Both the position numbers and the translations under genes were made by a program. A stretch of DNA of 60,771 nt from Candidatus Woesearchaeota archaeon (lineage in GTDB: Archaea > Nanobdellota > Nanobdellia > SCGC-AAA011-G17 > PNOQ01). Each line of letters begins with the position of its first letter. Within the stretch, counting starts at the first letter, position 1. The notes under the pieces were generated by a model. The model was not told the DNA's origin, made no database searches, and worked only from the letters and a program-made list of their open reading frames with translations. Below are positions 10,727 to 25,275 of the stretch, in pieces. The stretch lies in assembly GCA_964617925.1 (NCBI GenBank), contig CAZTYO010000001.1, positions 1-60,771 on the forward strand, in the 5' to 3' direction.

Positions 10727-13009
10727 ATGGCATTCAAGAAAAAATTAAAATCGGGCGAATATGAATTAATTCAAGATGGGCAATTTGATGTAATGAAAGT
10801 GAATTATCTTGGAATCTCACATTCGTCATCTATTTCAGACAGTAAATTTTGTATGTTGGATGTCATTAACAAATTAATTGAAGTTCCAAGTGTGAATAGG
10901 TTAATCATTTCTTCTGAAAAAAATTATCAATATTCTGCTGAACAAATTTCGATGTTAAGGGAAATTGCGAATTTGTATATTTATTTAACTAAACAAAAAA
11001 GAATATTGAGTTTTGGAAGTTTTGGATTAAGTGTTGAATATGCACAAAAATCTCCTTCTAGGTTTTCAGAACTTCAATTTGTTATATCTACTCTTCTTCG
11101 TAGTGATCCAATCGGAGCATATGTAGAATTGAGGAGATTAATTAGGGAACAAAAAATTAGGATTTCTAAACTTCCTACAAAAGATTTGGCAAATGAAGAA
11201 AATGCACATCTCGAGTTGTTAGTTGGAGTGGTAGATTTATTGAAAAAAACTAAATTAATATCTTCTATTCTGGATTTTGTAGATGGGCATGAAATAGGTG
11301 ATCGTTCATTTTACTCTTCCTTATTTAGGCCATTGATTTCTCCAAATTTTATGTTTACTAGACTTATGTCTGAAATTCCATTGGATGGTGAAGAAATTGA
11401 TGCATATAATTTAGATAAAGAAACAGGTATTTCTATTTTTATTACTAAAAATGATATAAAACCTCTTTATCATTTGGATCCACTTGAATTTAATTTACCA
11501 GAAGAAAAAAATGAATTGTTAGATTTAGCTAGATCTGTTTTAGCAGAACATAAACCTGTTACTGAAGAGTTTGTAGATCCAGAAAATATGAGAAGAACAT
11601 TTTTTAATATAGGTAGAGATTTATTAATTGAACTTGCAAAACATAAAAATTATATTATACCTTATGATGAGATAGAAAATCTTGCTAATATTTTGGTTAG
11701 ATATACTGTAGGTTTTGGATTGATTGAATTATTATTAAAAGATCCTAAAATTCAAGATGTCGTTATAAATGGCCCAATCGGAGTAACTCCAATTTTTATT
11801 GTTCATCAAGATTATGGGGAATGTGTTACAAACATAATTCCTAGCAGGGAAGATGGAGAAAGTTGGGCAACGAAATTTAGAATGATTAGTGGCCGTCCAT
11901 TAGATGAAGCTAATCCAGTTTTGGACACTCAGCTTAATGTTCCTGGTGGTCAGGCAAGAGTTGCAATAATTTCTCAACCTCTTAATCCCTTAGGATATGC
12001 ATATGCTTTTAGGAGGCATAGGGAACATCCATGGACATTACCTTTATTTGTTCATAATAAAATGATAAATTCACTTGCTGCAGGTTTGCTTAGTTTTGTA
12101 ATTGATGGTGGAAGAACTATGCTTATTGCTGGAACCAGGAGCAGTGGTAAAACTTCCTTGCTTGGTTCTTGTTTAGTTGAAATTATGAGAAAACATAGAA
12201 TAATTACTGTTGAAGATACCTTAGAATTGCCAGTTAATTCTCTTAGAGATATGGGATATAATATTCAACCTATGAAAGTTAGGGCTGCGTTATCTGAAGG
12301 CGGGGCTGAAATGGCAGCAGAAGAAGGAATTAGAACAAGTTTGCGGCTTGGAGATAGCAGTTTGATAGTTGGAGAAATAAGGAGTAAGGAAGCTTTAGCT
12401 TTATATGAAGCTATGAGAGTTGGTGCCCTTGCTAATGTTGTTGCTGGAACTATCCATGGTGCAAGCCCCTATGGTGTTTATGATAGGGTAGTAAACGATC
12501 TTGGAGTTCCACGTACTAGTTTTAAGGCAACAGATTTGATTATTGTTGTAAATCCTATAAAAACTCCAGATGGTCTCCATAAAATTAAAAGAGTAGTTAG
12601 TATAACTGAAATTAGAAAAGACTGGGAAAAAGATCCGCTTGCTGAAAGAGGTTTTGTCGACCTTATGAAATATAATGCAAAAACTGATCAGTTGGAACCT
12701 ACAGATAATTTAATAAATGGAGATTCCGAAGTTATAAAGAGTATAGCTAGTTCAGTTAAAGAATGGGTTGGAGACTGGGATGCAGTTTGGAATAACATAA
12801 GATTAAGGGCAAAAATAAAACAAAGATTGGTTGATTATGCAGTAGAAAATAAAAATCTTGATCTTTTGGAAGCTCCCTTTGTTATAAACTCAAATGATCA
12901 ATTTCATAAAATATCTGATTCTATTCTAAGAAAAACTGGAAAATCAGATTATGAAAAAGTATATTTCCAATGGAATGAATGGTTAAAGAAACAAATAAAA
13001 AAGAGGTGA
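10727..13009 (+). CDS. type II/IV secretion-family ATPase (archaeal PilB/FlaI-like), long N-terminal extension
   Basis: Walker A (AGTRSSGKTS), the Asp/Glu box region and GEIRSKEALALYEAM, typical of GspE/VirB11/FlaI ATPases. ~330 residues precede the recognisable core. Confidence 0.85.
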   Translation: MAFKKKLKSGEYELIQDGQFDVMKVNYLGISHSSSISDSKFCMLDVINKLIEVPSVNRLIISSEKNYQYSAEQISMLREIANLYIYLTKQKRILSFGSFGLSVEYAQKSPSRFSELQFVISTLLRSDPIGAYVELRRLIREQKIRISKLPTKDLANEENAHLELLVGVVDLLKKTKLISSILDFVDGHEIGDRSFYSSLFRPLISPNFMFTRLMSEIPLDGEEIDAYNLDKETGISIFITKNDIKPLYHLDPLEFNLPEEKNELLDLARSVLAEHKPVTEEFVDPENMRRTFFNIGRDLLIELAKHKNYIIPYDEIENLANILVRYTVGFGLIELLLKDPKIQDVVINGPIGVTPIFIVHQDYGECVTNIIPSREDGESWATKFRMISGRPLDEANPVLDTQLNVPGGQARVAIISQPLNPLGYAYAFRRHREHPWTLPLFVHNKMINSLAAGLLSFVIDGGRTMLIAGTRSSGKTSLLGSCLVEIMRKHRIITVEDTLELPVNSLRDMGYNIQPMKVRAALSEGGAEMAAEEGIRTSLRLGDSSLIVGEIRSKEALALYEAMRVGALANVVAGTIHGASPYGVYDRVVNDLGVPRTSFKATDLIIVVNPIKTPDGLHKIKRVVSITEIRKDWEKDPLAERGFVDLMKYNAKTDQLEPTDNLINGDSEVIKSIASSVKEWVGDWDAVWNNIRLRAKIKQRLVDYAVENKNLDLLEAPFVINSNDQFHKISDSILRKTGKSDYEKVYFQWNEWLKKQIKKR

Positions 13010-15136
13010 ATGATGCCAATATCTGATAAAGAAATTCAAGATATTTTAAATAAATATAAAGTAAAACTTGAAGATAAAGTGAATGTGTCTGATATTAATA
13101 AATATTCTCCTAATCCTGAATTTTCTAAAGAGTATGAACAATTTAAAAAAGAATATATGTCTGCTGGAACAAGTACTTATGAAAAAATGTGTTCTGTTTC
13201 TGAAGGAATTTTAAAAGTTAACCCTTCAAAAAAAGATTATAATAAAATTGAAGAAAGTATTAAATTTACCCATTTGAAAATTACTCCTATTAGTGTTGCA
13301 AGTTTTTCAATGGTTGTTGCAGGAATATTTGTCCTGTTAGCAATTTTAGTTGGTTCAATTGGTTATTTTGTTTTTGAAAATTCTTCATCAATTTTTTTAG
13401 CAGTTTTGTTTGTTATTGGTGCCCTCATTTCTTTAAAATATTTTACAAATTATCCTATCCGTCTTGCTAATCAATGGAGGTTACAAGCTAGTAATCAAAT
13501 GGTATTGTGTATTCTTTATCTTGTTATTTATATGAGGCACACTTCTAATTTTGAAAATGCAATAAAATTTGCTGCAGATCATGTTAAACCTCCTCTCTCT
13601 CTTGACCTTAGAAAGATTTTTTGGGATGTTGAAACTGGAAAATTTTCAACTATGAAGGAATCTTTAGAAAGTTATCTTTCTCATTGGAGGGATTATAATT
13701 TAGAATTTGTCAATTCTTTTCATTTAATTGAAAGTAGTTTATATGAACCAGATGAAGGAAGAAGATTAGAACTTTTAGATAAAGGTTTAAAAGTAATTTT
13801 GGATGGAACTTATGATCGGATGCTTCGTTATGCGCATGATTTGAAAAATCCTATAACTATGCTCCATATGTTGGGAGTAATTTTGCCGATACTTGGATTA
13901 GTAATCTTTCCTCTTATTGGTAGTTTTATGGGTGGAACTGTTAAATGGTGGCACCTTGCAATGTTATATAATCTTGCTCTCCCTGTTATGGTTTTTACTA
14001 TGGGCAATGGCATTTTAAATAAAAGGCCAACTGGCTATGGCGAAAGTTTAGTAGAAGTTAAAACGAAAAAAAATGCTTCTTATTTTGGCTTTTTTTTATT
14101 TGGATTATTCGTTCTTATAGGAATATCTCCATTTATATTACATGCTATAAATCCAGGATATGATATTAATCTTTTTGGTGAGAAATTTCTAGATTTTGAA
14201 TGTTTTCAAACTGGAAAATGTTATGGTCCTTATGGTCTTGGTGCTACATTGTTGGGATTGTTCTTGCCTCTTGGAATTGCATTAGGTTTTGGAATTCATT
14301 TTGTTTCTAGAACAAAAAAAGCAATGAAAATAAGAGATGAAATAAAAAAATTAGAAAGTGAATTTTCTACAAGTTTGTTTCAGCTTGGAACTAGAATTGG
14401 AGATGGTATTCCTACCGAATCTGCTTTTAAAGATGTTGCGGAAACTTTAGGTGGGACTCCCACTGGTAATTTCTTTAGTAGGATTCATGCTAATCTAACT
14501 CAAGGAGGGTTAGGATTAAGGGATGCAATTTTTAATGGAGAAAATGGAGCAATTTTAGATTATAGGACGCCCTTAACTGAAAGTGCGATGGAAGTTCTTG
14601 TTGAAAGTTCAAAGAAAGGTCCGAATGTTGTTTCACAATCAATGATTAGTATTTCAGGTTATGTGGATAAGATCCATAAAATAAATGAAAGATTAAAAGA
14701 TCTTTTGGCAGAAATAATTTCTAGTATGAAAGGACAGATAAAATTTCTTACTCCCATAATTGCCGGAATTGTAGTTGGGATTTCTAGTATGATTGTAAGT
14801 GTAATCTCAAAACTTTCTCTTATGACTAAAGTAGTTCAGTCAGGGGATGATACCTTTGGAGGTGGAATTTCTGGACTGGGGGAATTATTCAATAAAGTAG
14901 ACACCATTCCTAGTTATTTTTTTCAAATTATTGTAGGGGTATATGTTATTCAAATAGTTTATATTTTAACTGTATTATCTAATGGAATTGAATTTGGTGT
15001 TGATAAATTAAATGAAAAAAATAAAGCTGGTAAAAATTTGATAAAGAGTACTCTACTATATTTAATTATATCTTTAGTTGTAATCTTAATGTTTAATGGC
15101 CTAGCATCTTCTATTCTTAGTCTTGATGGAATTTAA
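13010..15136 (+). CDS. polytopic pilus/archaellum platform protein (FlaJ/TadC/PilC-like)
   Basis: Starts directly after the ATPase stop. Has many TM helices separated by two soluble helical segments (for example FSTSLFQLGTRIGDGIPTESAFKDVAETL, T2SSF-like). Confidence 0.6.
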   Translation: MMPISDKEIQDILNKYKVKLEDKVNVSDINKYSPNPEFSKEYEQFKKEYMSAGTSTYEKMCSVSEGILKVNPSKKDYNKIEESIKFTHLKITPISVASFSMVVAGIFVLLAILVGSIGYFVFENSSSIFLAVLFVIGALISLKYFTNYPIRLANQWRLQASNQMVLCILYLVIYMRHTSNFENAIKFAADHVKPPLSLDLRKIFWDVETGKFSTMKESLESYLSHWRDYNLEFVNSFHLIESSLYEPDEGRRLELLDKGLKVILDGTYDRMLRYAHDLKNPITMLHMLGVILPILGLVIFPLIGSFMGGTVKWWHLAMLYNLALPVMVFTMGNGILNKRPTGYGESLVEVKTKKNASYFGFFLFGLFVLIGISPFILHAINPGYDINLFGEKFLDFECFQTGKCYGPYGLGATLLGLFLPLGIALGFGIHFVSRTKKAMKIRDEIKKLESEFSTSLFQLGTRIGDGIPTESAFKDVAETLGGTPTGNFFSRIHANLTQGGLGLRDAIFNGENGAILDYRTPLTESAMEVLVESSKKGPNVVSQSMISISGYVDKIHKINERLKDLLAEIISSMKGQIKFLTPIIAGIVVGISSMIVSVISKLSLMTKVVQSGDDTFGGGISGLGELFNKVDTIPSYFFQIIVGVYVIQIVYILTVLSNGIEFGVDKLNEKNKAGKNLIKSTLLYLIISLVVILMFNGLASSILSLDGI

Positions 15137-15175
15137 TAAAATTTATAAATCTGAAAATATGAATTAATTAGAAAG

Positions 15176-15289
15176 ATGGGTGAAATGGATAAATTTTTGA
15201 AGTATGCATTAAGGACAATATTTGTTTTACTTACATTATTTATATTATATTCCATGATTATGAAAGGGGTGAATTTATTTGTTAAATAA
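15176..15289 (+). CDS. 37-aa micro-ORF, single-TM peptide
   Basis: MGEMDKFLKYALRTIFVLLTLFILYSMIMKGVNLFVK. Not in the ORF track. Overlaps the next gene's TTG start by 11 nt. Confidence 0.35.
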   Translation: MGEMDKFLKYALRTIFVLLTLFILYSMIMKGVNLFVK

Positions 15290-16166
15290 AAAAGCAGGAA
15301 TGGCAATGACTATTGCAGGAATAATAATATTAGTTCTTGCTGCAGGAATTTTCCTATACTGGTTTCTTTTTGAATTTGGTCCTTATGCCGAACAAGGAGT
15401 TGGAAGAGAAGCATGTAGGGATAGTGTTTTTTTGAGAACTCAAGGAAAGATTGCAGGATATACCACTTTTAAAAATTTGGCTTGTGAAACTAGACAAAGA
15501 GAAATTAAAACTGTTGATGAAGATAATATTAAAAAAGCAATTTCTGAAGAAATGTATGATTGTTGGTATCAGTTTGGTGAAGGTAAAAAGGATTTTTTAA
15601 CTGATAGGGATTGGGGATTTGGAAATAATTGGTGTTTTATTTGTTCTAGGATTGATTTTGATGAAAGAGTTAAAGAAGAAATTTCTCAAGTAAATGGTTT
15701 GATGACTTATTTAGATACTACTCCAGTTCCATTTTATAATGGGTCTTTTTTTAATTATTTTTATGGTACTGAAGGAGAAATTGGTGGGCAAATTTTTGAA
15801 GATGACACCTATGCAACTAATGTTCCTCTTTATGTTGCTTTTTTTGGAGATAAGAAAGTAGGAAGTTGGCCAGGCCTTGGAGGAGAAGCAGTTAGCGATG
15901 TTGGGTGGACTGCACTTGTTGGTGGGATTGCAGGTTGTGTGATTTGGGGTACTCTTGGAGCTACTGGTGGAAGTATTGTTCCTATTGCTGGAACTGTTGC
16001 AGGTTTTATTGCTGGTTGTCTGGCTGGGGGTGATACTGGTTTTTATGCCGGGGCCTTAATTGGTGGTGGAAAGGCAGTTTATGATGTTGGAACCCATAAA
16101 AAAGGCTTTTATACTGGATTGTATGTTGGAAATAGTGATGAAATTTTGGAGTCGTGTAATCAATGA
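15279..16166 (+). CDS. pilin-like exported protein with Cys-containing middle domain and C-terminal glycine-zipper membrane segment
   Basis: N-terminus is LNKKA-GMAMTIAGIIILVLAAG (class III signal-like, TTG start; an alternative ATG lies at 15300). The C-terminus has GxxxG-dense hydrophobic repeats (VGGIAGCVIWGTLGATGGSIVPIAGTVAGFIAGCLAGG). Confidence 0.6.
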   Translation: MLNKKAGMAMTIAGIIILVLAAGIFLYWFLFEFGPYAEQGVGREACRDSVFLRTQGKIAGYTTFKNLACETRQREIKTVDEDNIKKAISEEMYDCWYQFGEGKKDFLTDRDWGFGNNWCFICSRIDFDERVKEEISQVNGLMTYLDTTPVPFYNGSFFNYFYGTEGEIGGQIFEDDTYATNVPLYVAFFGDKKVGSWPGLGGEAVSDVGWTALVGGIAGCVIWGTLGATGGSIVPIAGTVAGFIAGCLAGGDTGFYAGALIGGGKAVYDVGTHKKGFYTGLYVGNSDEILESCNQ

Positions 16167-16321
16167 ATAAAAAAGGAGACTTAGTTTGGGATCAGATTGG
16201 GAAATTTATTTTAGCAATTATATTGATGGTAATACTTGCTTTTATTCTTTGGATGCATAAAGATAATATTTTTGAAATGTTTGAAGATTTTAAAACTGTT
16301 TTTAGGTTTGGTGGTAGTTAG
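16163..16321 (+). CDS. 52-aa micro-ORF, pilin-like signal plus amphipathic Phe-rich tail
   Basis: MNKKGDLVWDQIGKFILAIILMVILAFILWMHKDNIFEMFEDFKTVFRFGGS. ATGA overlap with the upstream stop, and its TAG overlaps the next GTG start by 1 nt. Not in the ORF track. Confidence 0.45.
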   Translation: MNKKGDLVWDQIGKFILAIILMVILAFILWMHKDNIFEMFEDFKTVFRFGGS

Positions 16322-17499
16322 TGGAGACTACTATTAAACATATAATTTCGGGAATTTTTGTAGTTATGATTATAGTTTTGGTTGGTTTTTGGGGAAATAG
16401 TACTCTAACGACCTTGGCAAATCAATATGGTTGGGATCTTTTTATTGGTGCAGATGAAATTGCTGCTCAAAAAGATTCAAAAGAAATTTTTGATGATTTA
16501 ACTTTGTCTTTAACCGAATGTATGAGTGACGAAAGTGTTAATTGTTTTTGCATTAAGGAAGAGATAAATCTCCCCACCGATTTCAGACTTGAATTTTCTA
16601 AAAAAGAAAGTAGTACTGATGTTATTTTAAAGTCTTCAAGAGTTACATTGGATGAAAAAAATATTAATTTTATTCCTTGCCTTTTACTTGAACCTTGGCG
16701 TTCGTCAGTTAGTTTGAATGGTCCTTTGACTTTATTATACGGAAATGATAAGATAATTAATAAAGATTATGAAGGTTTTTTTGATTCTTCTTCTGTGTTT
16801 TATAAGATGGAAAATAATAATCTTTGTATTGTTTCTGTTGAAGTTGCTAATTCCTATGATATAATCAGTTTGGAATGTTCTGAAAAAGATGAATCTTTTG
16901 ATTCATGGATTGATGCAGCAATAGTTTTTGATTCTGAAATTGATAATGTCCAATTAAATCAATATGTTTCACTTGCATCAATAAATTCAAATTTTGTGAA
17001 TAATGCAGATAAAATAATTAAGGGAATAATTTATTTAGAATCTTATAATAATGGAATATTCACAAATAGAGAGATATTAAAACACCAAGGAACTGGAAAA
17101 TATTTTGAAGGAAAAGGAAAAGGAATATCTTCACTACAAGTCATTGAATCTGGTCCTGCATATGAAGCTATTGGATCTGATGAAGGTAGGAGAATTTTAA
17201 ATTTATATGGATATTCTGATGTTGATTTCAGTGATGATTATTTGTCTGCTCTTTTAATTAATGATCCAGAATTTTCTATTTCTCTTGCATATGTTTATTT
17301 ATCTAATTCTATTGAAGATTTTTCAAATGTTCAAAATACTAATGATTTGTTTAAGTTATGGTTAATTAATTATAATAAGGCGAGTTTGGAATATGGAGAT
17401 TATGTCAATAAGATAAATCTTTTAAATAGCAGAGTTTTTGATATTGGAATTGAAAATTCGCAAGTCATAAGTGAAGATCAGAATCCTCACAGAATTTAA
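16321..17499 (+). CDS. N-terminally anchored exported protein with C-terminal lytic-transglycosylase (SLT/GH23)-like motif set
   Basis: TM helix IISGIFVVMIIVLVGFW. The C-terminal region has YLES..N, GISSLQV, LINDPEFSISLAYVYL and WLINYNKA, in the order and approximate spacing of the SLT motifs ES / GLMQ / DPxxNIxxGxxYL / AYNAG. Confidence 0.45.
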   Translation: METTIKHIISGIFVVMIIVLVGFWGNSTLTTLANQYGWDLFIGADEIAAQKDSKEIFDDLTLSLTECMSDESVNCFCIKEEINLPTDFRLEFSKKESSTDVILKSSRVTLDEKNINFIPCLLLEPWRSSVSLNGPLTLLYGNDKIINKDYEGFFDSSSVFYKMENNNLCIVSVEVANSYDIISLECSEKDESFDSWIDAAIVFDSEIDNVQLNQYVSLASINSNFVNNADKIIKGIIYLESYNNGIFTNREILKHQGTGKYFEGKGKGISSLQVIESGPAYEAIGSDEGRRILNLYGYSDVDFSDDYLSALLINDPEFSISLAYVYLSNSIEDFSNVQNTNDLFKLWLINYNKASLEYGDYVNKINLLNSRVFDIGIENSQVISEDQNPHRI

Positions 17500-17707
17500 T
17501 AAAATGGAAAATAAAGAGTTAGAACAAAGAAGAATTCCCCTTACAGGTATAAAGTTAAAGGAAAATTTAGATAAAAATAAAGAAGTTGTTAGGGAAGCTA
17601 TAGAAGATCATATGTTTATTATGCCAGCATATTTAAAATTTTTTCATTTTTTTCCTACAATAAAAACTTATTTTAAAGAGAAGGTTAAATCTAAATCAAC
17701 CAAAAAG

Positions 17708-17715
17708 TTTAAATA
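17708..17715 (+). promoter_or_regulatory. TATA-like box in front of the canonical pilin gene
   Basis: TTTAAATA ends 27 nt upstream of the GTG at 17742. It lies in the only long spacer (17500-17741) of the operon. Confidence 0.4.
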
Positions 17716-17741
17716 GTAAATTTGCTAGTTTTTTAGAAGAG

Positions 17742-18107
17742 GTGATTATACTGAAAGTTGATAAAAAAGGTCAAAGTCTTTCAATGAATACAATTATAAT
17801 ATCTATTCTTGTGATATTAGTTTTAGTTATTGTTGCTGGATTTTTTGCAGGTGGGATGACTGGATTAATAAATAAGATGAAGGGAATTTTTGGAGCTCAG
17901 CCAATTGATGCTAGCCAGGCAGTAATGGAATGTAATGGCTATTGTCAGAGTTATGATATAACTGGTGTAGAAAATTACAAAACTAATTTTTGTGGTGATG
18001 TGCTTTTTGATTTAGATACTGATAATGATGGTAAGATGGATACAAGTAAAACTTGCTCTCAACTCGGAGTCATATGTCAAACGATTATAGATGAAGGGGG
18101 ATGTTAA
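17742..18107 (+). CDS. archaeal type IV pilin-like protein (class III signal peptide), Cys-rich globular domain
   Basis: VDKKGQ-SLSMNTIIISILVILVLVIVAG is a textbook KGQ cleavage context plus hydrophobic helix. Six Cys in the ectodomain. The exact start (GTG 17742) is uncertain. Confidence 0.75.
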   Translation: MIILKVDKKGQSLSMNTIIISILVILVLVIVAGFFAGGMTGLINKMKGIFGAQPIDASQAVMECNGYCQSYDITGVENYKTNFCGDVLFDLDTDNDGKMDTSKTCSQLGVICQTIIDEGGC

Positions 18108-18139
18108 CCCTTTCTTTCTATTATTTGGAGATTTGTTAA

Positions 18140-18310
18140 ATGAGACTTGCCCTTGATACCATAGTTGTGTTTATTATAGCTATTTTAGTTTTAGTTTTAA
18201 TGTTGTTTATTTTTGGGGATCAATTTAAGACATTTTTTAATACATTTGGTGTGTTTATAAAGAATGCATTAGGTATTGCTAATATTGGTGTTAATGGAAC
18301 CATACAATGA
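18140..18310 (+). CDS. 56-aa micro-ORF, single-TM peptide with Phe-rich amphipathic tail
   Basis: MRLALDTIVVFIIAILVLVLMLFIFGDQFKTFFNTFGVFIKNALGIANIGVNGTIQ. GGAG lies ~8 nt upstream, and there is an ATGA overlap with the next gene. Not in the ORF track. Confidence 0.45.
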   Translation: MRLALDTIVVFIIAILVLVLMLFIFGDQFKTFFNTFGVFIKNALGIANIGVNGTIQ

Positions 18311-18786
18311 AATTAAGTTTTAAATTTATCTTTGGATTGGTAATTGGTATTGCAGGTCTTTTTTTGGCATTTAGTGCAGGGAGTGCAATGTGGGGGATTT
18401 TTTTCCCCGAACCTTTAGAATTAACTGAAAGTTCTATGGATAGATTGAATGTAGTTATATCAAATTTAGAAGAAGGTCAGAATACCACTATGTTATTTTA
18501 TTTAGAAAAGGGTTTTTATTTAGTTGGTTTTGATAAAGGGTCTGATTCTGGGCCAGTATATTTGCGACCTGAACAATGTTTTGAAACTTTCTGTTTATTA
18601 ATTTGTTCAAATTCTGGAAATGAAAGAAGTTGTTTAGATGCAAATTATGGGATAAGTCCTAATTCAATTGTTTCTTTTACTTCTGAAAATGTTGGCGGAG
18701 TTATTCTTTCAGAAACGGGAGAATATATTACTTTATACTTGGAAAAACAAGGAAGTGCTCTTTTAATTGAAAAACTTAATTCTTAA
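18307..18786 (+). CDS. N-terminally anchored exported protein, unknown family
   Basis: 159 aa; TM helix FIFGLVIGIAGLFLAFSAG; 4 Cys. In-operon position. Confidence 0.65.
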   Translation: MKLSFKFIFGLVIGIAGLFLAFSAGSAMWGIFFPEPLELTESSMDRLNVVISNLEEGQNTTMLFYLEKGFYLVGFDKGSDSGPVYLRPEQCFETFCLLICSNSGNERSCLDANYGISPNSIVSFTSENVGGVILSETGEYITLYLEKQGSALLIEKLNS

Positions 18787-18799
18787 ATTTGTAAAAATC

Positions 18800-18809
18800 T
18801 TTATAAATA
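18800..18809 (+). promoter_or_regulatory. TATA-like box, possible internal promoter
   Basis: TTTATAAATA ends 20 nt before the ATG at 18830. Confidence 0.3.
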
Positions 18810-18829
18810 TGTAAATCTGATTTTTATGC

Positions 18830-19237
18830 ATGGAAGAGGAGAGAATATATTTGTGGCCAGGATATCTTGTTATAACAACGCTTGTTTTAATCTCTTTATT
18901 TTTTATTTTAGTTAAGATATCTGATGAAACTTCGTTTAATCAAGATTATCTTTCAAAAGATATTTCATTATTAGAACAAAGTTTATTTATTGCTCCAGGC
19001 GATGTTTCTCTTAGGTATGAAGTTGTTCAAGATGAAGATAGGTTTAAAATAACTTTTGATGATTCTTGTGAGGTAAATGTAAATATCGATGATAGTTTGG
19101 GTTTTTCTGGTTCTTCTTCTTGGTGTGGAGGAAATAATTATTTTTTTACAGATTATCCACCTCAAGATGATTTTGATTATTTATTTTTTAATAAAACTTA
19201 CTCGGATTTAATTGTTGAAGGTGGAAAAAATGGATAA
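18830..19237 (+). CDS. N-terminally anchored exported protein, unknown family
   Basis: 135 aa; TM helix GYLVITTLVLISLFFILV; acidic ectodomain. Confidence 0.6.
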   Translation: MEEERIYLWPGYLVITTLVLISLFFILVKISDETSFNQDYLSKDISLLEQSLFIAPGDVSLRYEVVQDEDRFKITFDDSCEVNVNIDDSLGFSGSSSWCGGNNYFFTDYPPQDDFDYLFFNKTYSDLIVEGGKNG

Positions 19238-19727
19238 AAAAGGTTTTGTTTTTTTAACTGAAGAACAAATGAGTTTAGTCGTATATGTTTTTGTAATTCT
19301 TTTTGTTTGTGGCGTTTTAATTGTTGGATCATATTTATTTACAGATAAAAACATTGAAACTCAAGGGTTAGAGAGGCATTTATTAATAAATGGATTGTTA
19401 TATTCTCCAACTTGTTTGAGTTATAGTGATGAACTTCGTTCATATCCTGGAATAATAGATTTAGATAATTTTAATGAGAATAAATTGTCTAATTGTATTT
19501 CTTATGAATTCGGAGGCCAAGGATTTAAGTTAATTTTATATGATGTTAATGAAACAATATTGAAAGAAGTAGAAGTTAATCCTCAAGTATTTACACAGGG
19601 ATTATTGTGTGGATTGAAAGAATCAAATTTTGAATGTTTTTCCAAACGAGATTATGTGTTGTTTGAGAACAATTCTTTTTTTGAATCTGGTTATTTAGAT
19701 ATTAAGGTGGTGACTCCAGTTGGATAA
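19230..19727 (+). CDS. pilin-like protein (class III signal-like N-terminus)
   Basis: MDKKG-FVFLTEEQMSLVVYVFVILFVCGVLIVG. GGTGGA precedes the ATG at 19230 (the track used the TTG at 19212). 8-nt overlap with the upstream gene. Confidence 0.6.
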   Translation: MDKKGFVFLTEEQMSLVVYVFVILFVCGVLIVGSYLFTDKNIETQGLERHLLINGLLYSPTCLSYSDELRSYPGIIDLDNFNENKLSNCISYEFGGQGFKLILYDVNETILKEVEVNPQVFTQGLLCGLKESNFECFSKRDYVLFENNSFFESGYLDIKVVTPVG

Positions 19728-20295
19728 AAAAGCAACAACTTTAATGATGAGGCTTTTTAATATTCTTTTAATAGGAATTCTCTTGGCAGGATTTTTATTG
19801 ATTATGGCATTTGGTAGTTTGAAAGAAAGTGAAAATCAAGAGATTATTAAAATAAATGAAAAATTAACTTATTCTGAAGATAACCTTCAAATGATTAATT
19901 ATCTTAGGTCTAATTTCCAATTTCCAAAATTTGGAAATTCTAGTGTTTTATCTATATTAATAAATTATGATTCTAATCTTCTTTCTAGTTCTGATGTGAA
20001 TTTTCTGAAAGAACAAACTGAAAATATCTTAAATAATATGACATACTGTCAAATTATTGATAATAAAGAAATTTTGAGAAGTTATTCCTTTTATTTGACT
20101 GCAGAACTATATATGAAATTTGATGAAATTGAGGAAATTGTTCAATTCAGTTCAGAATCTTTTTGTAATGTGGATGATCAATTTATTTGTAATGATCAAT
20201 TTATTGTTGAAACTCAAAAATTATTAGATGGGTATTATCTTATTCTTGTTGCTAGTGATACTTTTTATTCTGGGGAGAATTGTTTAAAATGGTGA
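19720..20295 (+). CDS. pilin-like protein (class III signal-like N-terminus)
   Basis: TTG start preceded by AAGGTGGTGA. MDKKA-TTLMMRLFNILLIGILLAGFLLIM. 8-nt overlap with the upstream gene. Confidence 0.55.
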   Translation: MDKKATTLMMRLFNILLIGILLAGFLLIMAFGSLKESENQEIIKINEKLTYSEDNLQMINYLRSNFQFPKFGNSSVLSILINYDSNLLSSSDVNFLKEQTENILNNMTYCQIIDNKEILRSYSFYLTAELYMKFDEIEEIVQFSSESFCNVDDQFICNDQFIVETQKLLDGYYLILVASDTFYSGENCLKW

Positions 20296-21059
20296 ATAAA
20301 AAAGGATTATTTACATTATATGTTTTAATTTATACTATCTTAGGAATAGGAATTTCTTTAATGTTATTTGTTAATTTTCAAGAACATTCTTCTACTAAAT
20401 ATCTTGGAGATAGCCAATTAAACCTTATTGAATTATATTCTGAAGGGGAGAGTGATCTATTTTATGTTACTCAACTTCTTTCTGATATTGAAATTGTTTC
20501 TAGTTTGTTTGAAAATGGAGGATTTTATAATGATCCAAATAAAATGAATGGAGAATATGTATTGTGGAAAAAGAATTCATCCGATTGCTATCCCACTTTA
20601 AATTTATTAGATAGGGAGTTTTCTATTGTTTTTAATAAAAAATTGTTAAATGAAGGCTATTCTCTTGATTATTCCACCAAAGTTATAAATTCTCTTTCTT
20701 TTTTTGAAATTTTATTTAATTCTTCAAAAAATTTAGATTATTCTATTGTTAATAAAGAAAATGAAGAAATTGGAATTTATTCTCTCTCCCCTAATTTCAA
20801 AATCTTGATTAATTATGATTTAAATAATTTTTTTAGTTTTGTTGAAGAAGTTAAATCTATTGTAGGTTTGTGCCAAAATGACGAAAATTGTTGGGAATCT
20901 CATGCAACTTTTGAATGGGAGAACAATGGTAACCTTTTTATGTTTGAGTCACTTCCTCAATTAATTCAAACTGTAAATGGAGAAAAAGAAGTAAAAATTA
21001 AAGCTGCAGTTGATTTCGAAGAAATAAATGAATTAGTTGAAGGTGAATTTGAATGTTAA
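20289..21059 (+). CDS. pilin-like protein (class III signal-like N-terminus)
   Basis: MVNKKG-LFTLYVLIYTILGIGISLMLFV. GGGGAG lies 12 nt upstream of the ATG at 20289. Overlaps both neighbours. Confidence 0.55.
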   Translation: MVNKKGLFTLYVLIYTILGIGISLMLFVNFQEHSSTKYLGDSQLNLIELYSEGESDLFYVTQLLSDIEIVSSLFENGGFYNDPNKMNGEYVLWKKNSSDCYPTLNLLDREFSIVFNKKLLNEGYSLDYSTKVINSLSFFEILFNSSKNLDYSIVNKENEEIGIYSLSPNFKILINYDLNNFFSFVEEVKSIVGLCQNDENCWESHATFEWENNGNLFMFESLPQLIQTVNGEKEVKIKAAVDFEEINELVEGEFEC

Positions 21060-22045
21060 GGTTAAGTTATGAAGAAATTATAGATAAGATAGTTAATGAA
21101 AAAGGCGTTTCTAAAGAAGATATTGAAGAAAAAATTGAAGTAAAAATTAATGAACTTTCTGATCTTATTAGTAAGGAAGGTGCAGCACATATAATTGCTA
21201 ACCAATATGGCATAAAATTATTTGAAAATAATGCCCCCAAAGATTTGAAAATTTCAAAAATTCCCAAAGGTGTTAATGGCATTAATGTACTAGGTAAATT
21301 AATTTCTGTTTTTGAGATTAGAGAATTTAAAACTGAAAAAAGACAGGGAAGGTTGGGATTTTGTACTATCGGTGATGAAACGGGATCTATGAGGTTGGTA
21401 GTTTGGGATGATAAAATTCTTGATAAAGTTAATGAAATTTCTAAAGAAGGAGATATTATTAAAGTTGGAGATGCATATTCTAAGGAAAATAATGGATATA
21501 TAGAACTTCATTTAGGGTCTAGAGGAAAGTTAGATATTAATCCAGAAGGAGAAACAGTTGGAGAAGTAAAAACCACTTCTTTTGAACCTTCATTTTCAAA
21601 GAAAAAAATAAATGAATTATCGAATGGGGAAAGAGTGGAATTACAAGGGACTATTGTCCAAGTTTTTGATCCTAGATATTATGATGTTTGTGAAAAATGT
21701 AATCGTAAAGTATTTCAACAAGATGGAAAAGCTACTTGTAATGATCATGGGGAAGTTTCGCCTAAGAAAGCAATTGTTCTCAATTTCTTTTTTGATGATG
21801 CTACTTCAAATATCAGAGTTGTTTGTTTCGCAGATCTTGCTGAAAAAATAATCAGTAAAACTGGCCAAGAGTTGAGTGTTCTTGAGCCTATAGAAGTTGA
21901 AAATGTGACTAAGGGATTATTGGGTTTTCAATTTGTAATTAAGGGTAGAGTTACAAAAAATGTTAATTTTGATAGATTGGAATTAATAGCAAATTTTATA
22001 GACCCTGCAAATCCTGTAGAGATTATAGAATCTTTTGAAAAATGA
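21053..22045 (+). CDS. rpa: replication protein A (euryarchaeal-type RPA, OB folds plus zinc finger)
   Basis: N-terminal SYEEIIDKI...ISKEGAAHIIANQYGI helix. OB-fold blocks (GRLGFCTIGDETGSMRLVVWD). CEKCNRKV...CNDHG zinc ribbon inside the second OB fold. Confidence 0.8.
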   Translation: MLRLSYEEIIDKIVNEKGVSKEDIEEKIEVKINELSDLISKEGAAHIIANQYGIKLFENNAPKDLKISKIPKGVNGINVLGKLISVFEIREFKTEKRQGRLGFCTIGDETGSMRLVVWDDKILDKVNEISKEGDIIKVGDAYSKENNGYIELHLGSRGKLDINPEGETVGEVKTTSFEPSFSKKKINELSNGERVELQGTIVQVFDPRYYDVCEKCNRKVFQQDGKATCNDHGEVSPKKAIVLNFFFDDATSNIRVVCFADLAEKIISKTGQELSVLEPIEVENVTKGLLGFQFVIKGRVTKNVNFDRLELIANFIDPANPVEIIESFEK

Positions 22046-24114: not shown

Positions 24115-24399
24115 ATGGCATATGTGATAGTGACTTTAAAAATAATGCCAAATAATCCCGAAGTAGATTTGAAAGAATTGGAATCAAAGATTAAAGTTTC
24201 ATTATCCGAATTTTTGAAAAAAAAAGAACCAGAAACTAAAGTAGAAATAACTCCTGTTGCATTTGGATTAAATTCAATTGATCTGACTTTTGCAGTAGAT
24301 GAAAGTCTGGGTTCGGCAGATCCTTTTGCAGAGTTAGTTTCAACTTTCGAAGAAGTTGCTTCTGCGGAAATAATCGATGCTAGACGGGCATTAGGTTAA
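24115..24399 (+). CDS. ef1b: translation elongation factor aEF-1 beta
   Basis: MAYVIVTLKIMPNNPEVDLKELE...VAFGLNSIDLTFAVDE...SAEI pattern and ~94 aa size. Start moved to the ATG at 24115. Confidence 0.75.
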   Translation: MAYVIVTLKIMPNNPEVDLKELESKIKVSLSEFLKKKEPETKVEITPVAFGLNSIDLTFAVDESLGSADPFAELVSTFEEVASAEIIDARRALG

Positions 24400-25275
24400 A
24401 ACATACATCAAGACATTTCCAAATATTAAACTTATTATTACTGCCAATATTATTGCAGGTAGAAAGGGGATTCCATCTTTTATTATTATTTTTTTAATTT
24501 TGTTTTTATTTAATAATTTAATTTGTTCTTTTGTAATTCCTTGTGTAGATGGTTTGTAAATTATTTGTTTATTTACTTTTATTTGATGAGTTATGTAATC
24601 TCCTTCTCTTAATTTATTTGAATTAATTGTTTTGATCATGCTTGCTTTTTCTATTGCAGAAATGGTTAACCAAAAATAAAATAAAACTAAAGGTAATGCA
24701 AGTATTATTATTGCCGAAAGTTTAAATTGAAAATTTTTAATCATTATCATACTTAATAATATTCCACTTATTGAAAAATAAATTGTTATTTTTTTTAGTT
24801 TTTTAATATTCTTGATTTTACTTTTTTCCTTATAATATTTTATTAATTTTTCTTTATTTTTTATTCCTAATATTATTCCTAAAATTATACTATATATTGC
24901 TCCAACAATCATTATGTTGATAAACAAAATTATTAAAAAATTCATATTTAAAGAAGGGTTAAAATATTTTAATAAGAATTCTGGATATTCTGGAATCGCT
25001 GCTCCAATCATCATTAATATTTTTGAATCTCCTCCTCCCCATTGTTTTGTGTAATACATTATATTTCCAATAGTGAAAAATATTCCAAAACCAATTAAAC
25101 TAATAATTAAGATATTCCAATTGTTCGATATTAGTGAAGAAAATAAATAAAAACTAAAGAGTGAGATTATTATACTAAAATTTAACCAATTTGGAACTTC
25201 TTTAGTTTTTATATCTGAATAAGTAGCTATAGTTAATCCTATTAATAATAATATTAAAATTATTGCTTCCATCAA
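24391..25275 (-). CDS. A24-family prepilin/preflagellin peptidase (PibD/FlaK/EppA-like)
   Basis: Polytopic. First catalytic Asp context is ATYSDIKTKEVPNWLN; the second is in WGGGDSKILMMIGA (GxGD). Confidence 0.8.
   Translation of the reverse strand: MMEAIILILLLIGLTIATYSDIKTKEVPNWLNFSIIISLFSFYLFSSLISNNWNILIISLIGFGIFFTIGNIMYYTKQWGGGDSKILMMIGAAIPEYPEFLLKYFNPSLNMNFLIILFINIMIVGAIYSIILGIILGIKNKEKLIKYYKEKSKIKNIKKLKKITIYFSISGILLSMIMIKNFQFKLSAIIILALPLVLFYFWLTISAIEKASMIKTINSNKLREGDYITHQIKVNKQIIYKPSTQGITKEQIKLLNKNKIKKIIIKDGIPFLPAIILAVIISLIFGNVLMYVLT

Follow-up and report, generated by a model that had tools for sequence, protein, structure and literature searches.

Three conserved micro-genes in a type IV filament operon of a Candidatus Woesearchaeota archaeon, two of them resembling headless pilins

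For DPANN archaea, whose way of life is attachment to other cells, surface filaments are foremost among the structures that could make contact with the host. The window analyzed here, a stretch of 60,771 nt from the 0.6-Mb genome (41 contigs) of an ultra-small Candidatus Woesearchaeota archaeon (DPANN), carries an operon of pilin-like genes downstream of the assembly ATPase and platform genes of a type IV filament (T4F). Each of three gaps between the long open reading frames (ORFs) of this operon is occupied by one micro-ORF, designated m1, m2, and m3 and encoding 37, 52, and 56 amino acids (aa), respectively. A preliminary description of the window had suggested that they could encode filament subunits, recalling the very small Flp-type pilins of Tad systems, or assembly cofactors. 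The locus raises the question of whether frames this short are genes at all and, if so, whether their products become part of a filament or remain in the membrane.

As judged from comparison with relatives, all three are real, conserved protein-coding genes under purifying selection. For their role we favor, with a probability of about 60%, a composite reading in which m2 and m3 would be headless pilin-like subunits, m3 being a truncated paralogue of the neighboring 121-aa pilin without a leader, and m1 would be a partner of the 295-aa protein encoded directly downstream.

Conservation of the three micro-ORFs and selection on them

The three ORFs were found on the forward strand at the places previously described (Table 1), and each encodes a single hydrophobic helix, also as described, with one stretch of 19 residues and Kyte-Doolittle maxima of 2.1 (m1), 2.75 (m2), and 3.5 (m3). 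The region is AT-rich and contains dozens of 30- to 57-aa ORFs in wrong frames; therefore, the presence of an ORF proves nothing by itself, and it is conservation that excludes chance. The syntenic region was taken from 34 relatives belonging to the genus of the window genome (window genus), six other genera of its family, and 15 other families of the order. By tblastn and ORF maps, all three micro-ORFs were located at matching positions in relatives. Orthologs were assigned by non-iterated seed profiles combined with position, because iterated hidden Markov models merged m2, m3, and all pilin N termini.

Conservation in the examined relatives is at the amino acid rather than the nucleotide level, and the non-ORF frames of the orthologous stretches are seldom open. 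In the only unsaturated pair of loci (L033/L032), the ratio of nonsynonymous to synonymous substitution rates (dN/dS; pairwise, Nei-Gojobori) was 0.07 for m1, 0.07 for m2, and 0.25 for m3, compared to 0.12 to 0.13 for the accepted flanking genes. Conservation with Ka/Ks below 1 in syntenic loci had been proposed as the check on these ORFs; the frames proved intact and syntenic, with purifying selection evident throughout the family and the order and also outside the order.

Overlaps of the ATGA and TAGTG type with neighboring genes had also been brought forward as an argument for coding. These overlaps are present, but the count of two coupled micro-ORFs has to be corrected, as all three overlap the downstream gene. 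At its 3' end, m1 shares 11 nt with the 295-aa gene, which begins with TTG; m2 opens with an ATGA on the stop of the 295-aa gene and closes with a TAGTG that includes the GTG with which the 392-aa gene begins; and the last bases of m3 form an ATGA with the start of the 159-aa gene. Overlaps of 1 to 17 nt between each micro-ORF and its downstream gene are kept among relatives. The view that these are not chance ORFs is thus borne out by the syntenic frames, the kept overlaps, the rarity of other open frames, and dN/dS below 1.

It is very improbable that the ORFs are untranslated and have arisen by chance in spacers between genes or in regulatory leaders. Such an explanation could draw on the abundance of short ORFs in AT-rich DNA and on the failure of public gene finders to call m1, but it has to contend with frames intact in all examined relatives, amino acid-level conservation, dN/dS of 0.07 to 0.25, hundreds of diverged members of constant length, and a search of the region in which no Rfam family or tRNA was found. 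We consider it effectively refuted by conservation. A 57-aa ORF antisense to m1 (15133-15306, reverse strand) is open in 6 of 19 orthologous regions and is most likely spurious.

The label "unannotated" given to the three ORFs holds for m1 only. Public gene finders miss this one of the three, and its sequence was absent from a collection of 15 billion proteins, whereas m2 and m3 are called on this contig, which recurs in several metagenomes of JGI and ENA, by both as nameless genes. The NCBI records of orthologs read "hypothetical protein" of Candidatus Woesearchaeota or Nanoarchaeia. For annotation, the locus is a reminder that ORFs of fewer than 60 codons in the operon gaps of reduced genomes can rank among the best-conserved genes.

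Pilin-like features of m2

The leader was scored by [KR] at position -2 and Gly or Ala at -1, and m2 carries such a leader, MNKKG. It is followed in the window by D-L-V-W-D with the acidic residue at +5, a hydrophobic helix of 19 to 20 residues, an amphipathic tail, and a C-terminal FRFGGS. The family pattern consists of M-x-K-K-G, [ED]-[IL]-x-W-[DEN], x-[IL]-G-K-W, about 20 hydrophobic residues, an amphipathic stretch, and an R-F-G-G end, with K3, G5, and L17 at least 90% conserved among 49 homologs. Counted from the glycine, position +5 holds an acidic or amide residue, which is reminiscent of Glu5 in bacterial pilins. Modeled by AlphaFold2 (AF2) with the family alignment, m2 forms one helix spanning residues 4 to 48 with a mean predicted local distance difference test (pLDDT) score of 76.

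The m2 family was found in 128 of 151 sampled genomes of the order, representing 27 of 29 families, and in 33 more genomes from other orders of the same class (E <= 1e-5). It comprises 576 representative clusters at 50% identity, and the best 150 of these are all 45 to 91 aa long and matched end to end with no fusions, so within this set m2 is a stand-alone micro-protein and not a domain of a larger protein. The three micro-proteins add three families to the parts list, of which m2 alone accounts for this number of clusters.

The codons of the RFGG end read AGG TTT GGN GGA TGA and place a Shine-Dalgarno (SD)-like GGNGGA directly before the overlapping start of the next gene (16304-16323 and orthologs); AGG encodes the Arg of RFGG in 18 of the 21 orthologs that have Arg there. 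A ubiquitin/SAMP-like diglycine end was considered for RFGG and set aside, as the motif overlaps the SD-like sequence of the next gene and its predicted topology is outside the cell.

m3 and the 121-aa pilin

In the window, m3 consists of a hydrophobic helix, an amphipathic Phe-rich continuation, and a disordered tail with an N-G-T sequon. In all other genera it begins with M-x(1-3)-K-K-G-Q-G-L-S-[IV]-E-T-I-I, the same N terminus as that of the 121-aa pilin, which starts with KKGQSLSMNTIII. The m3-family profile run against its own genome matched the 121-aa pilin with an E value of 9.5e-11 and m2 with an E value of 3e-5, so m3 is a paralogue of the 121-aa pilin that has no head domain, and m2 is related to them more distantly. 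Similar Phe-rich tails of m2 and m3 had been pointed out and are indeed present, because the two are related. Their amphipathic character turned out to be moderate, with a hydrophobic moment of 0.48 for m3 (p ~0.01) and 0.43 for m2 (p ~0.1).

The leader of m3, KKGQ in the other genera, is absent in the window genus. In its four genomes, m3 begins with M-[RGN]-[LI]-[AT]-[LI]-[ED], its Met standing opposite the +1 Gln in the alignment. The m3 ATG is directly preceded by a stop codon in three of these genomes (TAA in the window), and in the fourth a stop lies four codons upstream; therefore, no leader is possible in the window genus. In the AF2 model, residues 2 to 44 of m3 form a helix followed by a disordered 12-residue tail (pLDDT 80). 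Of 17 orthologs, 11 have an N-x-S/T sequon at -5 to -9 from the C terminus, among them all four leaderless copies, compared to about 5% expected from the sequon density in the other ectodomains of the operon. This sequon supports a C-out topology and probably N-glycosylation, as in EpdE (MMP1685), the headless major pilin of Methanococcus maripaludis, which is N-glycosylated and has a mature mass of 6.4 kDa (PMC4390842).

The likeness might be taken further, with m3 as the major filament subunit in the manner of EpdE, the 121-aa protein as a minor or tip pilin, and m1 and m2 as priming subunits. The size of m3, its headless build, its conserved acidic residue, and its tail sequon resemble EpdE (PMC4390842), and m3 directly follows the 121-aa gene with an SD-like GGAG/GGTG of its own. 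Such a role is nevertheless improbable, since m3 is the least constrained of the three micro-proteins (dN/dS 0.25 to 0.5) and the 121-aa pilin is the most constrained (dN/dS 0.12 to 0.25), and the m3-family profile detected no extra copies of m3 in the genome. A leaderless major pilin would also be without precedent in the literature searched, in which the phrase "leaderless pilin" was unmatched at the full-text level; the wording is absent, and the phenomenon may still be known.

Elsewhere in the genome, the m3/pilin N-terminal profile gave only one further match, a weak one (G000:C10:13261-13374, reverse strand, locus L075; E=0.003), inside a 148-aa open frame that may represent an additional pilin-like gene outside the operon.

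m1 and its 295-aa partner

Orthologs of m1 were present in 19 of 19 family loci. In the window genus, m1 starts with M-G-[ED] only (Met-Gly in the window), and stops lie one to seven codons upstream; in other genera of the family, it starts with M-x(0-2)-[KR][KR]-G. At the order level, 12 further loci have a single-helix ORF of 25 to 41 aa, mostly without KKG, placed directly before the 295-aa ortholog, and in 11 of these the two overlap. The pair of m1 and the 295-aa gene is intact also where the module has moved from the platform gene (L045, L053, L056, L058, and L060). By these features, m1 is a poor prepilin candidate, since most lineages of the order lack its leader, and looks like an obligate companion of the 295-aa gene, with a product that resembles a tiny partner protein in the membrane.

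The 39-nt gap between the platform gene and m1 (15137-15175) contains the TATA-box-like element TTTATAAA, starting 34 nt before the m1 ATG. All 19 syntenic loci have an element of the TTTATA/TTATAA type that lies 28 to 34 nt before this ATG, and the gap measures 31 to 41 nt in 18 of the 19 and 39 nt in the remaining one, L031. The usual archaeal TATA-to-start spacing would put the start of transcription at or just before the m1 ATG, so TTTATAAA probably serves as the promoter of a nearly leaderless transcript, which would start with m1 and be separate from the ATPase/platform unit.

The 295-aa protein has an N-terminal NKKAG followed by a helix, a Cys-rich middle part, and a Gly-rich hydrophobic C terminus. 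Its gene requires the TTG start to take in the conserved NKKAG, and the leader is retained in 31 of 32 orthologs. A frameshift fusion of m1 with the 295-aa gene was considered and is unnecessary, as the latter has its own conserved leader and helix. Because its two ends carry hydrophobic segments, the protein more likely belongs to the membrane than to the filament. As part of the favored composite reading, m1, the 295-aa gene, and m2 constitute a conserved, translationally coupled module.

Filament subunits or membrane-resident helices

The proposal that the micro-proteins are pilins was supported in part. It fits m2 and m3, which combine a class III-like [KR][KR]G leader (in m3 outside the window genus), a hydrophobic stretch, a long predicted helix, and a place in a T4F operon, though incompletely, as neither belongs to the Flp families or to Class_IIIsignal, and it fared poorly for m1, whose leader is absent in most of the order. 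A hydrophobic helix of about 20 residues, as in the N-terminal half of pilin alpha-1, was found as a single stretch in each of the three and as a single AF2 helix in m2 and m3. Pilins are further expected to have a T4F ATPase, platform protein, and A24 peptidase in their genomic neighborhood; all of these are encoded in the window, and the synteny is kept in relatives. By sequence, m2 and m3 look like headless pilin-like proteins of new families without a curated match.

In the mechanism that we propose, each micro-protein would correspond to a type IV pilin pared down almost to its N-terminal alpha-1 helix. m2 and m3 would insert into the membrane with an N-in/C-out orientation, m2 would be cut after the glycine of its KKG (Gly5) by the A24 peptidase, and both would be passed to the ATPase/platform machine. 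Their helices may pack with the larger pilin-like proteins in the filament core, at the tip, or in a membrane sub-complex, leaving the short C-terminal tail exposed and, in m3, probably N-glycosylated. m3 would have arisen as a truncated paralogue of the 121-aa pilin, and in the window genus it would have lost the leader, with translation starting at the mature +1 position and peptidase processing bypassed. As the first cistron of the pilin transcript, m1 would encode a very small bitopic protein that is produced in a 1:1 ratio with its partner, the 295-aa protein.

Alternatively, all three may be membrane-resident accessory or scaffold helices that organize or gate the platform and the larger pilin-like proteins, derived from pilins and no longer polymerized. 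We hold this competing reading to be rather unlikely. It would account for the dispensable leaders (m1 and m3 in the window genus, m1 in most of the order), for the tight conserved coupling to one specific downstream gene, with the m1/295-aa pair moving as a unit, for the hydrophobic segments at both ends of the 295-aa protein, and for the late start of the helix after the glycine in m1 and m2. It agrees less well with the near-invariant K-G of m2, the KKGQ of m3 outside the window genus, and the paralogy of m3 and the 121-aa pilin, which favor true peptidase substrates, or with the conserved external sequon in the tail of m3, which suggests surface exposure. Moreover, headless pilins do polymerize, Flp being one of them. 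EpdE is another (PMC4390842).

Several observations weigh against the favored reading. The missing m1 leader and the lability of several other leaders in the operon fit membrane-resident accessory proteins equally, and the two-ended hydrophobicity of the 295-aa protein is unlike that of a filament subunit. The hydrophobic stretch of m1 and m2 starts 9 to 10 residues after the glycine, later than in canonical prepilins, and the conservation of the m2 RFGG, coinciding with the SD-like GGNGGA, may be partly at the nucleotide level. Pfam and NCBIfam scans of m1 to m3, their leader-bearing orthologs, and the neighboring proteins gave only noise for the micro-proteins. Class_IIIsignal (PF04021; UPF0333/DUF361), which covers the QxSxExxxL region, did not match the window proteins or the leader-bearing orthologs at E values up to 10, and its best score in the whole genome was 6.8 bits, compared to a cutoff of 23.7 bits that the M. 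jannaschii control exceeded. The m2 and m3 family profiles retrieved only unrelated hydrophobic helices among PDB sequences, and a Foldseek search started from the m3 model came back empty, which is to be expected of a lone helix.

Two distant relatives of m3 touch known families. P0107 bears the JGI label UPF0333, which was not confirmed by Pfam, and P0103 matched Flp1_like with an E value of 1.7e-5 and 24.6 bits, below the cutoff of 33.5 bits.

Comparison with known pilin systems

Beyond the glycosylated exposed part, to which the m3 tail sequon would correspond, EpdE shares with m3 a Gln after the cleavage glycine, as KKG|Q is found in m3 orthologs and in the 121-aa pilin. The helix-only build of the m3 orthologs resembles that of Epd-type headless pilins (arCOG06620) by description only. 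In contrast to EpdE, which is encoded away from the machinery locus, m3 lies inside the operon and overlaps the next gene, its form in the window genus is without any signal peptide, and no sequence-family link is detectable, with PF04021 unmatched. Epd pilins without a globular domain have been likened to Tad, and the Epd system has two platform genes (PMC13705601), whereas a single 708-aa platform is encoded here.

The likeness to Flp pilins of Tad systems suggested earlier was sustained for size and helix-only build and failed at the level of family and system. The micro-proteins resemble the one-helix prepilins of about 50 to 60 aa without a head domain that make up bacterial Tad Flp, and Flp shares a leader ending in Gly and an acidic residue at +5, with W-D/E at +4/+5 in m2. 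However, Flp_Fap (PF04964) and Flp1_like (PF16982) matched none of m1, m2, and m3, the host is an archaeon whose system is not Tad, neither a TadV/CpaA-type peptidase nor an RcpA-type secretin context is present, and three different micro-proteins are each tied to a larger pilin-like gene.

In Geobacter, PilA-N, a truncated helix-only pilin of about 60 aa, is encoded directly upstream of its partner PilA-C, and the two make a heterodimeric subunit. The pairs m1/295-aa, m2/392-aa, and m3/159-aa follow the same gene-pair logic. In contrast to PilA-C, the partners here carry their own pilin-like N-terminal helix, so no head is missing, and no sequence relation was detected. In the bindosome assembly system of Sulfolobus, the BasABC proteins are small class III-signal proteins encoded beside a T4F ATPase and platform and needed to place larger class III-signal proteins on the surface. 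The window ATPase gave a weak match to BasE (E=1.8e-16, far below the cutoff). The Bas proteins are larger than 37 to 56 aa, and the partners in the window are not sugar binding.

According to a 2026 survey of archaeal T4F, ordered T4F loci are rare among Nanobdellati (DPANN), in which the pilins are scattered (PMC13705601). In contrast, the window locus (10727-21059) is ordered and conserved across the examined Woesearchaeales loci. The pilin-like genes, including the three micro-genes, match no Pfam or NCBIfam model, which may explain why such surveys miss them.

Labile leaders in the operon

Loss of the leader with a start at the mature +1 position is not confined to m3. It was found in the 392-aa gene in the window genus and several others, with a KKG leader in some genera, and in the 159-aa gene in the window genus and one other (genus g6), with two loci borderline and NKKA/NKKG in most other family genera and in all order-level loci. 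The 135-aa gene has lost the leader in the whole family, and 5 of 5 order-level orthologs detected keep MNKRG/MNKKG; the 171-aa gene has lost it in one genus other than the window genus. The leader is retained nearly everywhere in the 295-aa, m2, 121-aa (27 of 28 orthologs), and 259-aa genes and in most cases in the 191-aa gene.

These losses constitute a natural experiment on the need for a prepilin leader. A possible interpretation, which we offer tentatively and with considerable doubt, is that the operon represents repeated conversion of prepilins into leaderless pilin-like proteins, with m1, reduced to Met-Gly here and without a leader in most of the order, as a further case, and that co-translated modules of a micro-pilin and a large pilin build a T4F sub-complex. 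If the leaderless proteins still join the filament, tip, or base complex, a class III leader and peptidase processing would not be required for entry. Micro-pilins of 37 to 56 aa, each co-translated with a large partner, would, if this is true, be an undescribed way to build a T4F sub-complex in DPANN.

Locus setting and gene order

Downstream of the platform gene, which is kept in 40 of 41 relatives, about 12 forward-strand genes extend up to 21059, and nearly all of them encode an N-terminal basic [KR][KR][GA] motif and a single hydrophobic helix. The gene order in the family is platform, m1, 295-aa, m2, 392-aa, 121-aa, m3, 159-, 135-, 171-, 191-, and 259-aa genes, and RPA; every family locus of sufficient length has this order, which is largely kept in the rest of the order-level loci. 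FlaI/TadA-like NCBIfam matches of the window machinery were below threshold.

The A24 peptidase gene lies 6 kb from the operon genes. Its translation contains both catalytic-type Asp motifs (SD..., GGGD) and looks intact, and the archaeal C-terminal domain matched with an E value of 1.5e-3 and 19.5 bits, below the cutoff of 29.9 bits. By its sequence, the enzyme is the presumed processor of m2 and the other KKG-bearing proteins.

TABLE 1 Features of the T4F locus in the window
Feature	Positions	Strand	Remarks
T2SSE-type assembly ATPase	10727-13009	+	Pfam T2SSE E=4e-15
Platform protein, T2SSF-like, 708 aa	13010-15136	+	Pfam T2SSF E=4e-4, below cutoff
TATA-box-like TTTATAAA	15142-15149	+	In the platform-m1 gap
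m1, 37-aa single-helix micro-protein	15176-15289	+	First cistron after the platform gene
295-aa pilin-like membrane protein	15279-16166	+	Overlaps m1 and m2 on either side
m2, 52-aa protein, looks like a headless pilin	16163-16321	+	ATGA overlap upstream, TAGTG downstream
392-aa exported protein	16321-17499	+	Translationally coupled to m2
121-aa Cys-rich pilin-like protein, starts KKGQSLSMNTIII	17742-18107	+	Best-conserved pilin of the operon
m3, 56-aa putative headless pilin paralogue	18140-18310	+	ATGA overlap with the 159-aa gene
159-aa pilin-like protein	18307-18786	+	Translationally coupled to m3
135-aa protein	18830-19237	+	Operon gene
171-aa protein	19212-19727	+	Operon gene
A24 prepilin (class III signal) peptidase	24391-25275	-	Peptidase_A24 E=8.5e-13

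The 392-aa protein measures 391 to 394 aa in the window genus, compared to 197 to 255 aa in other genera of the family. It is about twice as long only in the window genus; therefore, its C-terminal half is a genus-specific addition. Between the 392-aa and 121-aa genes, a gene for a basic protein of about 70 aa without a hydrophobic helix and with a KKFK end (17471-17716, likely ATG at 17504) is present only in the four genomes of the window genus, and JGI and ENA call a 70-aa gene there. A 330-aa RPA-like gene (21053-22045) follows the last pilin-like gene in every relative of the family and order whose sequence reaches so far; therefore, the pilus-RPA junction is conserved synteny and no local accident.

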